A stretch of 41,145 bases of DNA from an uncultured Candidatus Saccharibacteria bacterium (lineage in GTDB: Bacteria > Patescibacteriota > Minisyncoccia > Phycocordibacterales > UBA9973): assembly GCA_964366465.1 (NCBI GenBank), contig CAYITR010000001.1, positions 1 through 41,145 on the forward strand. Reading direction: 5' to 3'. A model generated the notes under the pieces. The model made no database searches, was not told the origin of the DNA, and saw only the letters and a list, made by a program, of their open reading frames with translations. Below, piece by piece: positions 8,392 to 41,145 of this stretch; position 1 is the first letter of the stretch; each line of letters opens with the position of its first letter. The position numbers were made by a program, and so were the translations under genes.

Positions 8392-9138
8392 TTAACTTTC
8401 TACTTGAGGAGATTGTTTTTCCAAAACAATCTCCTCGCTCCCCAGCTCCTGCACAGCGTTTAGTATACCTTGCCTGACCATTTCGAGCATAGCCAGGAAG
8501 CCGACGATGACTTCAACCTTCTCCTCCTTTGTCTTACTCTCACCTTTCTTGTGATTGGCGAAATCTCGGAAGCTCATAGTGATAGAGCTCTGAATGCGTT
8601 CAGTCAGCTTGTCGATCATTTCTTCGATACTTATAACCTTACGCACTTCCACGTTTGGCATAAATTGCTTCTTCGGCATTGCTCCGAGCACTTCCTTGGC
8701 GAAGGTCATCATACTCTCGCGGGTGATCTGGCTATCGGGTAAAAATACAACAACATCATTCCTTCTTTCCTCTGAGGCAAAAATAATATTTTTACCAAAA
8801 TTGCTTTTTATATTTAATCCCAACCTGGTGAAAAGTTCGTAGAGTCGCAACCTTTCTTCTAAATTTTTAATGTCGCCTTTTTCTTCGTCAGTTAATTCTA
8901 GATTCGGCAACAGTGATTTTGATTTAATTAAAATTAGCGTTGAAGCTACGAGGATAAAACTGGAAATCTCGTTGGGGTGAATAGCTCCCAACTTGTTCAT
9001 GTATTGCAAATAGTCTTCCGTCACTGCCGAGAGCGACACGTCGTTTATGTGTAGCTTTCGCTTCTCCACTAAGCCTAAAAGCAGGCCAAACGGCCCCTCA
9101 AACCCAGCAGTTTTTATAGTATAACTATTACTTTCCAT
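8392..9138 (-). CDS. scpA: Segregation and condensation protein A (kleisin)
   Basis: 248 aa with FEGPFGLLLGLVEKRKLHINDVSLSAVTEDYLQYM, a typical ScpA N-terminus. Extended -10 TGCTAACAT (plus 9145-9153) lies 6 nt upstream of the ATG. Confidence 0.85.
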   Translation of the reverse strand: MESNSYTIKTAGFEGPFGLLLGLVEKRKLHINDVSLSAVTEDYLQYMNKLGAIHPNEISSFILVASTLILIKSKSLLPNLELTDEEKGDIKNLEERLRLYELFTRLGLNIKSNFGKNIIFASEERRNDVVVFLPDSQITRESMMTFAKEVLGAMPKKQFMPNVEVRKVISIEEMIDKLTERIQSSITMSFRDFANHKKGESKTKEEKVEVIVGFLAMLEMVRQGILNAVQELGSEEIVLEKQSPQVES

Positions 9139-9175
9139 CCCTGTATGTTAGCACTTTTTAGAAAAAAGAGAAATG

Positions 9176-9228
9176 AAAAAAACCGCTCCTCCAGTTCGGC
9201 TTTTTCATACGAACTGCAGAAACGGTTT
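9176..9228 (-). terminator. Intrinsic terminator of the GC-rich cassette
   Basis: Minus strand reads AAACCGtttCTgCAGTTCG..CGAACTGgAGgagCGGTTTTTTT. This is an imperfect long hairpin with a CAGTTCG/CGAACTG core followed by T7. Confidence 0.65.
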
Positions 9229-9267
9229 GATGTTGTGGGGGGTCTATACTAGCACCCCCAATGACCT

Positions 9268-9597
9268 CTACTTCGCGAGAAGGGCGGGGCTGTCCCCGGG
9301 GAAGAAAACGTTTCTGAGAGGGAACCAGAGCACCCGCACTCGGCGATGGAAGACGAGGCGCTTAACCTCGCGGTCATCGCCACGACCCCGGGTCATCCCC
9401 CAGAGAACGGGGTAGATCGCCCGAAGTTCCTTCGGATAGGTCTCAGGGTGGTCGATCCACCCCCGGACCAGCGACGACTCGAGGGTGGTCTTGAACGCCT
9501 CGGGCTTCTCCTTACGGAGAAGGGCCTCAAGGGCGTGGCCACCGATGGTCATGCTCCCCTGCCAGGGAAAGAGGAAGAGCTCGTAGCCCCCCGTCAT
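9268..9597 (-). CDS. Hypothetical 109-aa protein encoded in a GC-rich island
   Basis: Strong SD GGAGGA 7 nt before the ATG. Roughly four-fifths of third codon positions are G/C by my count, in an otherwise AT-rich genome. It has its own promoter and terminator. I recognise no motif (MTGGYELFLFPWQGSMTIGGHALEALL...). Confidence 0.55.
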   Translation of the reverse strand: MTGGYELFLFPWQGSMTIGGHALEALLRKEKPEAFKTTLESSLVRGWIDHPETYPKELRAIYPVLWGMTRGRGDDREVKRLVFHRRVRVLWFPLRNVFFPGDSPALLAK

Positions 9598-9733
9598 GGC
9601 ATCATCCTCCTTTTCTGTCTTTGTCGTTCAAGCTAACCCGTGAATGGGTTTCGCCACAGCGGAGAAATCCCGATTGATTACGGGAGCTTTCTGCTATGGC
9701 GAAATTCTCAACTTTATTTGAAAGAACTTATAT
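9598..9733 (-). promoter_or_regulatory. Structured 5' UTR of the GC-rich cassette
   Basis: 11-bp stem TTCGCCATAGC / GCTGTGGCGAA (plus 9650-9660 and 9693-9703) encloses the nested hairpin AGAAAgctCCCGtaatcaatCGGGaTTTCT. A second hairpin AACCCgtgaatGGGTT lies at 9635-9650. Confidence 0.5.
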
Positions 9734-9739
9734 CTGTGT

Positions 9740-9768
9740 ATTATACACCCTTTTAGGGCAAAAGTCAA
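9740..9768 (-). promoter_or_regulatory. Near-consensus sigma70-type promoter (TTGACT-17-TATAAT)
   Basis: Minus strand reads cacTTGACTtttgccctaaaagggtgTATAATacacag. The -35 is plus 9763-9768 and the -10 is plus 9740-9745, with an exact 17-nt spacer. Confidence 0.7.
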
Positions 9769-9804
9769 GTGTAAAAAGTAGTCAAAAAAGATATACTACG
9801 CTTG

Positions 9805-12285
9805 ATGAAAATACGAAAACAGCCAAGCGTCCGATTGTCTAAAAATGTGATCCCGAAAAGCTATGAAATACAGCTTCGACCGGATCTGGAGAACTTCACT
9901 TTTGAAGGAGTAGAAACCATCCATTCTAGTATTTTGCAAAAGACTAGAACAATAACTCTGCATTCTAAAGAATTAGAAATTGAGACTGCGGAAGTCGGAC
10001 TTCCGCACGAGAAAATGTTTGCAAAGATTAATTACGATATAAAATCCGAGACAGCAACTTTTACATTCCCGAAAATTATTCAAAAAGGAGAAATAAAACT
10101 TACTTTAGTTTTCAAAGGCATACTAAATGACAAAATGCGGGGCTTCTATAAAAGCTCTTACATTTTCGACGGCAAAGTTCACCACATTGCCACCACTCAA
10201 TTTGAAGCCACAGACGCTCGCCGAGCTTTCCCCTGCTTTGACGAGCCAGCGCAGAAAGCAGTGTTCCACTTGTCGCTAATTGTACCGAAAGGCAAAAGCG
10301 TTATCTCAAATACCTTGCCCGTCTCAACCCTAAAACATGAAGCGGGTTACGAAGTTGTCAAATTCGCACCTACACCAAAGATGTCCACCTACCTCCTCGC
10401 ATTTATCGTCGGCGACTTCGAATACATCGAGAAGAGAACAAATCGTGGCGTCATCGTCCGCGTTCACACCACGGCCGGTAAGAAACACCAGGCGAAGTTT
10501 GCCCTCGACTCTGCGGTAGAAATTTTAGAATTCTATGAGAAATATTTCGACATCCCCTACCCACTCAACACTCTCGACATGATTGCCATTCCAGACTTTC
10601 AAGCTGGGGCGATGGAGAACTGGGGCGCCATAACTTATCGCGAGTCCGCACTCTTGGTGGACGACAATCATTCTTCCGCTTCCAACAAGCAATGGGTGGC
10701 GCTAGTCATCGCCCATGAGATAGCTCACCAGTGGTTCGGCAACTTGGTGACCATGGAATGGTGGACGCATTTGTGGCTCAATGAAGGCTTCGCTTCTTAC
10801 ATAGAATATTTGGCGATAGATAAACTTTTTCCAAAGTGGGACATCTGGACCCAATTCTGCACGAATGATCTCGGAGTTGCGCTCCGTTTAGATTCATTAC
10901 AAAGCACTCATCCGATAGAAATACCCGTGCATCATCCGGATGAAATTGGGGAAATTTTTGATGAAGTATCATACTCCAAGGGTGCTTCGATAATCCGCAT
11001 GCTCGCCAGTTATTTAGGTGAAAAAGATTTTCGCGACGGTTTGCGATATTATCTAAAAAAACACAGTTACAAAAACACCGAGACCCTCCACCTCTGGCAA
11101 GCATTTGAAAAAGTCTCGTGTAAGCCCGTGGTTAAAATGATGCGAACCTGGACATCAAAACCCGGCTACCCTGTAGTTAAGTTGAAAGTGGAAAGTGGAA
11201 AGTTAAAAGTCACTCAAGAAAGATTTTTTAGTAATCCTGTTTCAAAAAATAAAATAAAAGATAACACAAAATGGGAATTCCCTTTGAATTTCAAAAATAA
11301 CAAAGTAAACTTCGGTGAGGCGGGATTTTTCCGAACTGCTTATTCTAAAGAATTATTAGAGAAACTTCGCGAGCCTATTTTGAATAAAAAGTTGAGCTCG
11401 CGCGACAGGCTCGGCATCATCCGCGACCTTTTTGCCTTATCTGAAGCCGGCATAGTGCCCACTACCGATGCCCTTTCATTCTTGTCCGCATATAGAAACG
11501 AAGACAACTATACCGTCTGGCTCGAGATAGCGGGAGGCTTGGCTCGGCTAGAGCAACTCTTCCCCGAAGACGGTCTTCGGGGAAAATTAAATCAGCTTAC
11601 ATTGCAATTATTCTCGCCACTGTGCACCACTTTGGGCTGGGAAAAGAAAGCAGATGAGCCTCACACCGACACCTTACTTCGCTCGCTCGCCATCTCACGC
11701 GCAGGTCGTGCTGGTGATAAGAAAATAATTGTTAAAGCAAAAGCAAAGTTCGCCTCAAAGAATGTTCCCCCCGACATCCGCGGAGCTGTCTACGGCATAG
11801 TTGCTACACACGGTGGTCTGAAAAAATTCCGTGAATTTACCGCTAGGTACAAGAAAGAAACTTTGCATGAAGAAAAAAATCGCCTTGGTGGTATATTGGG
11901 AGATTTCAAAAATCCAAAAATTCTCAAACAAGTTTGCGAATTCGCTGTTTCTAAGCACGTCCGCCCGCAAGACACCATAGGCATCATCTCTGGAGTCGGG
12001 GTGAACCCCAACGGACGCGACATCTGGCTCGACTTTGTTATGAAAAATTGGAAAATGTTGGTCTCGCGCTACGGCGACGGCGGGCACACCCTCGCCCGAC
12101 TAGTGAAAGCCATAAGTGGAAGCGCAGAGGAAAAGCATCTTAGAATTTTCAAGCAATTCTTCACCGCCAATGAAGCCCCTGGAGCCAAAAGAAGCATCGA
12201 GCAAGTCCTCGAGCGACTCGAAGGCAACATCGCTTGGAGAAAAAGAGATGCGAAAATTATTGACGAATTTCTAAAAAAAATTTAA
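9805..12285 (+). CDS. pepN: Aminopeptidase N family (M1 zinc metallopeptidase)
   Basis: GAMENWG exopeptidase motif and HEIAHQWFGNLVTMEWWTHLWLNEGFA (HEXXH-x18-E). I prefer ATG 9805 over the track's TTG 9802. TATACT at 9792-9797 lies 7 nt upstream. Confidence 0.9.
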   Translation: MKIRKQPSVRLSKNVIPKSYEIQLRPDLENFTFEGVETIHSSILQKTRTITLHSKELEIETAEVGLPHEKMFAKINYDIKSETATFTFPKIIQKGEIKLTLVFKGILNDKMRGFYKSSYIFDGKVHHIATTQFEATDARRAFPCFDEPAQKAVFHLSLIVPKGKSVISNTLPVSTLKHEAGYEVVKFAPTPKMSTYLLAFIVGDFEYIEKRTNRGVIVRVHTTAGKKHQAKFALDSAVEILEFYEKYFDIPYPLNTLDMIAIPDFQAGAMENWGAITYRESALLVDDNHSSASNKQWVALVIAHEIAHQWFGNLVTMEWWTHLWLNEGFASYIEYLAIDKLFPKWDIWTQFCTNDLGVALRLDSLQSTHPIEIPVHHPDEIGEIFDEVSYSKGASIIRMLASYLGEKDFRDGLRYYLKKHSYKNTETLHLWQAFEKVSCKPVVKMMRTWTSKPGYPVVKLKVESGKLKVTQERFFSNPVSKNKIKDNTKWEFPLNFKNNKVNFGEAGFFRTAYSKELLEKLREPILNKKLSSRDRLGIIRDLFALSEAGIVPTTDALSFLSAYRNEDNYTVWLEIAGGLARLEQLFPEDGLRGKLNQLTLQLFSPLCTTLGWEKKADEPHTDTLLRSLAISRAGRAGDKKIIVKAKAKFASKNVPPDIRGAVYGIVATHGGLKKFREFTARYKKETLHEEKNRLGGILGDFKNPKILKQVCEFAVSKHVRPQDTIGIISGVGVNPNGRDIWLDFVMKNWKMLVSRYGDGGHTLARLVKAISGSAEEKHLRIFKQFFTANEAPGAKRSIEQVLERLEGNIAWRKRDAKIIDEFLKKI

Positions 12286-13249: not shown

Positions 13250-13380
13250 AAAAAAACCTGCCGATGCAGGAATGATATAGACTAAGTATCTTCCCCACAA
13301 AGGGCTGGATTTGGCACCTACTTTTTTAAAGGGTTGCCGGTGGTTCATTGAGCCAGTGCTCTCCCCACACTCTCGATAAT
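13250..13380 (-). promoter_or_regulatory. SAM-I (S-box) riboswitch with terminator, upstream of metK
   Basis: Minus strand reads TTATCGAGAGTGTGGGGAGAGCACTGGCTCAATGAACCACCGGCAACCC..GTAGGTGCCAAATCCAGCCC..GGGGAAGATA. This matches the S-box core (UUAUCaAGAG..GAGGGAcUGGCCCgAUGAAaCCcGGCAACC..GGUGCCAAuUCCagC..GAaAGAUa). It is followed by CCTGCatcgGCAGG plus T7. Confidence 0.85.
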
Positions 13381-13450
13381 ATATTTAATTGTATAAACAT
13401 TATACCACACACAAAACACCACAAAAAATAGTTTTCCACACCTATTCCAA

Positions 13451-40881: not shown

Positions 40882-40910
40882 TTGACTTTTAGCACCGAGT
40901 ATGCTATACT
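40882..40910 (+). promoter_or_regulatory. Near-consensus promoter TTGACT-17-TGcTATACT
   Basis: cccTTGACTtttagcaccgagtatgcTATACTatattt has an exact 17-nt spacer. The spacer contains AGTATGCTA, half of the CTAG-operator 20-mer. Confidence 0.7.
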
Positions 40911-40916
40911 ATATTT

Positions 40917-41145
40917 AGATTAGGGGGCCGGAACTGTGGAAGACCCCTCGGTCCGGGCGAAAAACGATATCTCGCGTTAATCGCCACCGACACGGCCACC
41001 ACGACCCGGGCCACCCTTGAACCAGCCCACCCCAACGAGGGTCGGGCACAGAAAGGAGGAAGTTCTTGAGAAATAAAGATCCGCCCTAACTGAGCGGAAC
41101 ATCCTACGAACGGCCTGGGTACGCGACGCGACCCCGGGCCGTTTT
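40917..41145 (+). ncRNA. GC-rich structured RNA or leader (unclassified) ending in an intrinsic terminator at the window edge
   Basis: Nested helices GACCCcUCG/CGAGGGUC, GGUCCGGG/CCCGGGCC and GGCGA/UCGCC. SD-like AGAAAGGAGGA plus a 7-codon TTG mini-ORF (41066-41089, MRNKDPP). Terminator CGGCCUGGG..CCCGGGCCG plus UUUU (41111-41145). Confidence 0.45.

Follow-up and report, generated by a model that had tools for sequence, protein, structure and literature searches.

The stretch of DNA analyzed here, referred to below as the window, comprises 41,145 nt from an uncultured Candidatus Saccharibacteria bacterium (GenBank assembly GCA_964366465.1, contig CAYITR010000001.1, positions 1 to 41,145, forward strand) and is contig C1 of a 738-kb genome in 75 contigs, with a completeness of 87.8% and an estimated contamination of 2.35%. 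Between ScpA/ScpB (ScpA, 9138..8392, minus strand) on one side and an M1 aminopeptidase gene (pepN, starting at ~9805, plus strand) on the other, the minus strand carries an island whose GC content is 0.585-0.635 over 9200-9600, compared with 0.36-0.45 on either side and 0.417 for the whole genome. An initial annotation, made from the sequence alone, had described this island as a self-contained cassette running from promoter to terminator, and all parts of that description could be located on the minus strand. Here we present evidence that the cassette carries a gene of the type diversified by diversity-generating retroelements (DGRs), probably orphaned, with its own promoter and a conserved leader RNA.

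The predicted sigma-70-type promoter (9740..9768, minus strand) consists of a -35 element, TTGACT (9768..9763), a 17-nt spacer, and a -10 element, TATAAT (9745..9740), as the initial annotation had indicated, and agrees with the consensus at 11 of 12 positions. Shuffled sequence also yields one such promoter per 1.1 kb, so that the consensus match by itself is within chance. Support for the promoter comes instead from conservation of the -10 box, since most of 23 aligned related leaders have the consensus TGTATAAT upstream of their hairpin. A AGTTCTTTCAAA box (9717..9728, minus strand) lies beside the expected transcription start and is conserved in the same alignment. Because its genome-wide occurrence is close to the chance rate (the AGTTCTTT box is not enriched in its own genome, with 12 found versus ~11 expected), this box is informative in the leader context only. 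After a leader of ~135 nt, the Shine-Dalgarno sequence GGAGGA (9605..9610, minus strand) precedes by 7 nt the ATG at 9597, which opens a 109-aa open reading frame (ORF; 9268..9597, minus strand) that closes with TAG at 9270..9268. A short GC hairpin of 6 bp, GGGGGU-(10 nt)-ACCCCC (9238..9259, minus strand), is predicted to begin 9 nt past the stop codon, followed by a predicted intrinsic terminator composed of an 18-bp hairpin and U7 (9176..9228, minus strand). Together, these 3' structures fold at -39.3 kcal/mol (z = -5.4), and a simple terminator scan did not flag the hairpin and U7. The long hairpin and U7 would end transcription ahead of scpA.

The ORF encodes a real protein, as judged by its codon periodicity, its full-length homologs, and a confident fold prediction. 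GC content at codon positions 1, 2, and 3 is 0.645, 0.445, and 0.818 in this frame alone, a periodic pattern foreign to RNA genes. An exhaustive HMMER search of 1.84 billion representative proteins identified 50 at E<=1e-3, of which nine reached <=1e-10; most are 102-190 aa long and match query residues 1-108. AlphaFold2, run with the family alignment, gave a pLDDT of 93.5 and a pTM of 0.84. The product is a 109-aa cytoplasmic alpha/beta protein, and its C-terminal beta-strand region is the counterpart of the portion rewritten by DGRs in relatives. The family consensus (alignment A1) reads ...YELYLHPxQ..G..I.G.DLE.HL...GL..R..SLE.ELVKGW..NP.TYPEELK....LWGS......R.VAYL.W..GRV.V.W.WL...W....PALLAS. 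The query is a bare core of ~108 aa, which lacks the N-terminal extensions of most relatives, and it is the lone member of its family in its own genome. All homologs with a named source come from Patescibacteria (Minisyncoccia, Saccharibacteria, Paceibacteria, and others); thus, as far as can be seen from these matches, the family appears confined to that phylum.

A word-indexed protein search returned the query as its sole match, back-translated scans with the single protein gave no match among genome contigs or metagenome contigs, and no near-identical copy was present in the metagenome or genome collections. Pfam, NCBIfam, and PHROGs, including their toxin and immunity families, had no match for the window protein or its homologs (PADLOC was not searched), and neither a structure search of BFVD nor a sequence search of the PDB gave a significant match. 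The best Foldseek matches in the PDB were carbohydrate-recognition domains of C-type lectins, at TM scores of 0.39-0.50 and without significance (E ~1, probability <=0.3). The initial annotation could assign the protein to no family; the exhaustive HMMER search, together with the repeat pairs of the relatives described below, places it among DGR-diversified proteins. As a separate observation, three much larger proteins (P0009, P0018, and P0037; 1254-1397 aa) contain 6-12 repeats that match query residues ~23-56, the helix region ending in NP.TYPEEL, and this segment may be an independent repeat module.

The link to DGRs comes from the loci of the relatives. The closest homolog, P0002 (50% identity, phmmer E = 3e-18), is encoded next to bAvd and an RVT_1 reverse transcriptase (RT), and the last 122 nt of its gene form a variable repeat/template repeat (VR/TR) pair with 86% identity, in which 12 of 15 differences fall at TR adenines (90-nt stretch scanned). 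Six further loci showed the same pattern, with mismatches at TR adenines in 13 of 14 cases at L053, 6 of 6 at L054, 13 of 13 at L074, 16 of 16 at L082, 12 of 12 at L098, and 8 of 9 at L099. We conclude that the last ~40 codons are a DGR VR in at least seven related loci, including that of the closest homolog. The TRs of the family span from about the codons past LWGS to ...CTCGCAA. Directly 3' of the TR, three distantly related DGRs (L047, at 1057-1090, L053, and L054) share a conserved ACTCTCTTCATTTCTCTCCCG...GGGAGAG element that forms a hairpin and may belong to the DGR RNA from which cDNA synthesis is primed. Two observations on individual relatives stand apart. On a metagenome contig (L095, Ga0137441_1006205), a family member is immediately preceded, at ~640-800, by a second VR-type 3' end (...CTCCTCGCAAGTTCTTAG), which suggests tandem target genes. 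In G071, the DGR RT (L091/L093, G071:C1:47192-47804) is split in two by an in-frame TAA and may be inactivated.

Projection of the homologous VR/TR pairs (alignment A1; L047, L053, L054) onto the window gene gives a VR-equivalent segment with approximate bounds 9274..9396 (minus strand), corresponding to residues ~68-108 and ending in ...MTRGRGDDREVKRLVFHRRVRVLWFPLRNVFFPGDSPALLA. The gene retains the conserved ...CCCGCCCTTCTCGC 3' end, followed by the 6-bp GC hairpin; an initiation of mutagenic homing (IMH) site is not definable at this locus without a TR. L047 and L049 have comparable short GC hairpins past their stop codons, and by analogy the hairpin in the window is a candidate counterpart, probably a remnant, of a DGR target-site hairpin or cruciform. 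The terminator shares 86% identity with sequence 3' of a verified DGR target gene, from a different protein family, in the same-genus genome G009. There, it follows a GC-rich 187-aa ORF whose C-terminus is repeated ~400 nt downstream with adenine-to-anything differences, and this repeat adjoins an Avd-like gene and an RT.

The genome itself contains two DGRs, with RVT_1 RTs on contigs C33 and C43 and a bAvd on C43. Their targets have adjacent VR/TR pairs whose mismatches fall at adenines (15/15 and 6-8/6-8). Neither TR resembles the window gene, which is far from both DGRs. For the segment 9274-9396, no TR was found on any of the 75 contigs, either by blastn with 7-nt words or by a gapless scan that forgave every adenine mismatch, and the 3'-flank motif of the family TRs was not found in the genome. 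TR-less copies are common among relatives: among the evaluable family loci, a tally gave 13 without a TR in the available flanks and 7 with one. G019, which is 100% complete, has a family member and no TR for it anywhere in the genome, and in G101 (98%) and G045 (100%) the leader and target-type genes are present with no DGR RT found.

Because no TR is present in the assembly and TR-less copies are common in relatives, we favor the interpretation that the island is a stand-alone DGR-type variable-protein gene, an orphaned and frozen target with its own promoter and a conserved leader, and we put the probability of this at roughly 65%. In the relatives, an RT-Avd complex would copy the TR into cDNA, randomize its adenines, and replace the last ~40 codons of the target; with no matching template, the allele in the window would no longer be rewritten and is most likely frozen. 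Several points weigh against this interpretation. The assembly is 87.8% complete and in 75 contigs, so that a cognate TR could sit in the missing sequence, and assemblies are often broken by DGR repeats. The query has F at a column (W83) where >90% of the family has W, and there is no relative >50% identical by which selection could be judged. Foldseek found nothing in the PDB at E<1e-3, so that a C-type-lectin fold is not demonstrated. Finally, the function of the leader, most likely mRNA processing or stability or the binding of a factor, is one that we infer in its entirety.

The first of these points leads to the alternative that the gene is an active remote target, whose codons ~68-108 are rewritten from a third TR, located in the unassembled ~12% of the genome and served by a resident or a third RT. 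Two intact-looking DGR RTs are indeed present, the gene keeps the conserved PALLA 3' end, the GC hairpin past the stop codon, an intact frame, and a promoter, and non-adjacent targets are documented for other DGRs (PMC5758913). However, the 75 contigs hold no TR-like copy even when all adenine mismatches are allowed, the 3'-flank motif is missing as well, a gene of this kind stands without any TR in G019, a relative whose genome is complete, and the same survey (PMC5758913) found truly remote targets only in lineages outside the candidate phyla radiation (CPR). We therefore regard an active remote target as unlikely. Since a cognate TR was not found, we class the window gene as a DGR-type variable-protein gene, probably orphaned, rather than as an active DGR target.

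The main feature of the leader is a ~22-bp hairpin (9704..9649) built on the 11-bp stem TTCGCCATAGC/GCTGTGGCGAA, so that the stem seen in the initial annotation turned out to be the base of a longer structure. In the RNA (9649..9704, minus strand), the basal stem UUUCGCCAUAGC/GCUGUGGCGAAA is followed by an internal loop and an apical stem, CUCCCG/CGGGA. A small second hairpin, ACCC-AUUCAC-GGGU (9636..9649, minus strand), is predicted next to it. In G013, the sequence upstream of another DGR target gene shares 78% identity with this promoter and leader. At E<=0.01, a covariance model (R1) built from three leaders matched 27 of the 151 genomes in the genus, and at E<=1e-4 it matched 5 of 150 genomes sampled from the other families of the phylum.

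We aligned 23 sense-strand leaders with MAFFT and found all 22 pairs of the hairpin supported. Paired cells amounted to 93.8%, compared with 77% in shuffles and 35-48% when partners were slid; double-change cells numbered 85, compared with 26 in shuffles; and compensatory change occurred at twelve pairs. The structure of the untranslated region, noted earlier as possibly regulatory, is thus a conserved element, as indicated by covariation. One G.U pair is retained on the sense strand in 22 of the 23 leaders, which argues for a conserved RNA structure on that strand rather than a DNA palindrome. The sequence of the stem is itself conserved (GUCAUAGCC, AAAAG / UUUYCU, GGCUAUGAC), as are the -10 box and the AGTTCTTT box upstream of the hairpin, and conservation of the stem sequence suggests a specific binding factor.

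The genes downstream of these leaders belong to several unrelated protein families and are mostly of DGR type. Next to six of the 22 lies a TR whose mismatches all fall at adenines (11/11 to 23/23); the gene downstream in G013 also has a TR copy, and other downstream genes are homologs of TR-bearing genes. For all five matches outside the family, the gene that follows encodes a DGR-type C-terminus. A pairing between a leader TACTTGC box and the 3' end of the VR (GCAAGTA) was considered and rejected: the locus lacks the box, and most box-bearing loci encode other C-termini.

In Rfam 15, the best scores within 9100-9850 were 16-19 bits, compared with cut-offs of 64-100, and no relevant match appeared at E<=10; a check of the leader against Rfam, proposed with the initial annotation, thus returned no family either at the gathering score or at E<=10. 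The sole gathering-level Rfam match in the window is a SAM (S-adenosylmethionine) riboswitch (RF00162, 64.6 bits) at 13283-13382 (minus strand). In the DGR survey of Wu et al. (PMC5758913), no such leader is mentioned, and the words 'promoter' and 'hairpin' do not occur.

The predicted fold of the leader leaves the Shine-Dalgarno sequence unpaired, which makes a simple translational switch unlikely. The hairpin would instead act on mRNA processing or stability, or bind a factor, leaving the ribosome-binding site free. Processing by RNase III is feasible since the enzyme is encoded in the genome, and the ~22-bp hairpin is a plausible substrate. In the Bordetella phage system, retrohoming does not require the sequences upstream of the VR (PMC3240598), and by this analogy a role of the leader in expression fits better than one in homing. 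A possible but doubtful extension is that, throughout the phylum, the leader hairpin serves as a regulatory RNA dedicated to DGR variable-protein genes and co-regulates all hypervariable binding proteins of a cell, whether diversified or orphaned, through a specific factor or a programmed RNase III cut, with the GC enrichment restricted to target genes reflecting a selective or mutational process linked to DGRs instead of horizontal transfer.

The sharp GC contrast had been taken to mean that a high-GC donor supplied the gene, which would encode a toxin, an immunity protein, or a host-interaction factor, recently imported and placed under a host-optimal promoter. The contrast itself, the empty site in G046 (the closest relative) and in the majority of the others, and the lack of any homolog in the word-indexed search all speak for such an import. 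However, the homologs with named sources are Patescibacteria genes, and nearly all of those that could be evaluated, from several lineages of the phylum, are GC-richer than their own flanks (0.49-0.62 versus 0.36-0.49). In the complete DGR cassettes examined (L015, L047, L008, and L016), the target gene has a GC content of 0.57-0.62, while the RT (0.37-0.38) and avd (0.42-0.45) are host-like; the more AT-rich C43 cassette differs in the same direction (0.45 versus 0.31), and the coding strand is also A-poor in two of the three GC-rich targets of complete cassettes. Because relatives are GC-rich compared with their flanks while RT and avd are host-like, the GC contrast is a property of this class of target genes and not the footprint of a high-GC donor. 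In addition, DGR targets of the same genus have homologous promoters, leaders, and terminators, and the zero matches in Pfam, NCBIfam, and PHROGs extend to toxin and immunity families. A recent high-GC import is therefore very unlikely, and we found no evidence for a toxin or an immunity factor. The suggestion of a host-interaction factor survives in part: it fits the ligand binding usual for DGR variable proteins, a function that the product would share by analogy, although acquisition from a high-GC donor is not supported.

Two other accounts of the contrast are scarcely credible. One is an assembly chimera, in which a fragment from a high-GC organism was joined into a Patescibacteria contig, as could happen in a metagenome-assembled genome with 2.35% estimated contamination. 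Against this, similar genes in same-genus genomes have flanks homologous to the AT-rich promoter and leader and to the terminator that directly abut the ORF, and the succession of promoter, leader, and GC-rich ORF is repeated in dozens of independent assemblies. The other is that the island is a structured non-coding RNA, such as a divergent RNase P RNA or transfer-messenger RNA (tmRNA), with the ORF accidental. In AT-rich genomes, islands of high GC often correspond to RNA genes, and the 88%-complete assembly has no match to bacterial RNase P RNA (RF00010) at E<=1 and none to tmRNA (RF00023) above the cut-off. Yet the island has no relevant Rfam match even at E<=10, ARAGORN found nothing in it, and it has a strong three-base periodicity, full-length protein homologs, and a confident fold prediction; the codon periodicity and the protein homologs effectively rule this account out. 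The initial annotation was therefore correct in calling the ORF genuine coding sequence (GC at third positions 0.82, 50 homologs, pLDDT 93.5), and its Shine-Dalgarno sequence (9610..9605), ORF (9597..9268), and 3' hairpin with T7 terminator (U7 in the RNA) are all in place.

The genome has ~40 further GC-rich islands (>=0.56 GC over 300 nt), many with small ORFs whose GC at third positions is 0.8-0.9; several of these ORFs have a TTGAC-type promoter before them and a terminator after them. Examples are C47:728-1111, C47:1722-2249, C5:16336-16617, C5:5303-5458, C11:7525-8850, and C3:16725-18125. At 40882-41145 (plus strand), the window contains a second strongly promoted GC-rich stretch (TTGACT...TGCTATACT, then ~230 nt of high GC), which runs off the end of the contig and has no match to the leader covariance model R1.

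The surroundings of the cassette point to an insertion. In most relatives that keep the gene pair, the start codons of scpA and pepN are only ~20-60 bp apart, which indicates that the cassette was inserted at a variable spot between the two genes or replaced sequence there. The closest relative, G046, has an empty spacer of 25 bp. On the host side of the insertion, and outside the cassette, lies the putative extended -10 element of scpA, TGCTAACAT (9145..9153, minus strand), which would give a near-leaderless scpA mRNA (ATG at 9138); a comparable box is found in the empty site of G046. Among relatives retaining the pair, only G011 has a spacer of comparable length (L019, G011:C2 505-1164). It holds a different gene, a conserved hypothetical of 154 aa with 8 homologs, its own consensus promoter and hairpin terminator, and no TR in the G011 genome; the pepN-proximal ~95 bp, up to the -35 box, are common to the G011 spacer and the window. 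A plus-strand 'MKKTAPPVRL' at 9173 was considered as a duplicated pepN start or a target-site duplication and rejected, as this terminator sequence also occurs in G009, where the context is unrelated.

To our knowledge, DGRs are the sole natural system that rewrites a protein binding surface on demand, and we know of almost nothing on how their target proteins act or are expressed. Patescibacteria are among the richest hosts of DGRs. Our analysis places a foreign-looking, GC-rich orphan gene of a streamlined genome in a DGR target family, despite null results in word-indexed and curated hidden Markov model searches. That target-type genes persist without a template bears on how useful binding proteins become fixed. 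The conserved leader, without an Rfam family and unmentioned in the DGR literature examined, offers a testable handle on target-gene regulation, and the difference between GC-rich targets and host-like RT and avd genes cautions against reading such islands as horizontal transfer.

Among known systems, the BPP-1 mtd target site has no sequence similarity to the window, where the hairpin loop is 10 nt, compared with 4 nt in the phage target-site hairpin, and where an IMH/IMH* pair is undefinable without a TR. The two resemble each other in having a variable segment at the 3' end of the gene and a GC-rich inverted repeat within ~10 nt; in BPP-1, retrohoming is efficient only with such a downstream hairpin/cruciform (Guo et al. 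2011, PMC3240598). DGR proteins with a C-type-lectin fold, such as Mtd, Treponema TvpA, Thermus TaqVP (PMC6328139), and archaeal AvpA (PMC5006420), represent the expected scaffold, one able to tolerate massive variation in a C-terminal binding surface. C-type lectin domains are the sole PDB matches of the window protein at TM ~0.4-0.5, though non-significant; the protein has no significant structural or sequence match to this group and is much smaller than its members. Like the remote DGR targets, for example the seven of the Treponema denticola DGR (PMC5758913), the window gene is a target-type gene away from an RT; unlike them, it has no matching TR, by which the known ones are defined.

For the leader, long stem-loops of 5' untranslated regions that act as determinants of RNase III cleavage or stability offer a parallel, given a ~22-bp hairpin that could plausibly be cut by this enzyme. 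Another parallel is found in the RNA motifs RT-1 to RT-19, which are catalogued in Rfam. These too are conserved structured RNAs tied to retroelement-associated genes (Weinberg et al. 2017, PMC5737381), but they occur near bacterial RT genes, whereas the RNA in the window lies in the leader of a target gene, away from any RT or TR, and matches no Rfam family at E<=10. The gene itself appears, on sequence grounds, to join a known class, the DGR targets of Patescibacteria (the 'CPR set' of Wu et al. 2018, PMC5758913, ungrouped or UVR1-6; clade 2 of Roux et al. 2021, PMC8144416), which belong to the same phylum and are small and without a known domain. The copy in the window differs from these in being a bare core, distant from both resident DGRs and without a TR in the assembly; it resembles them in its homology to proteins that have a C-terminal VR of ~40 codons, an adenine-mismatched TR, bAvd, and an RT.

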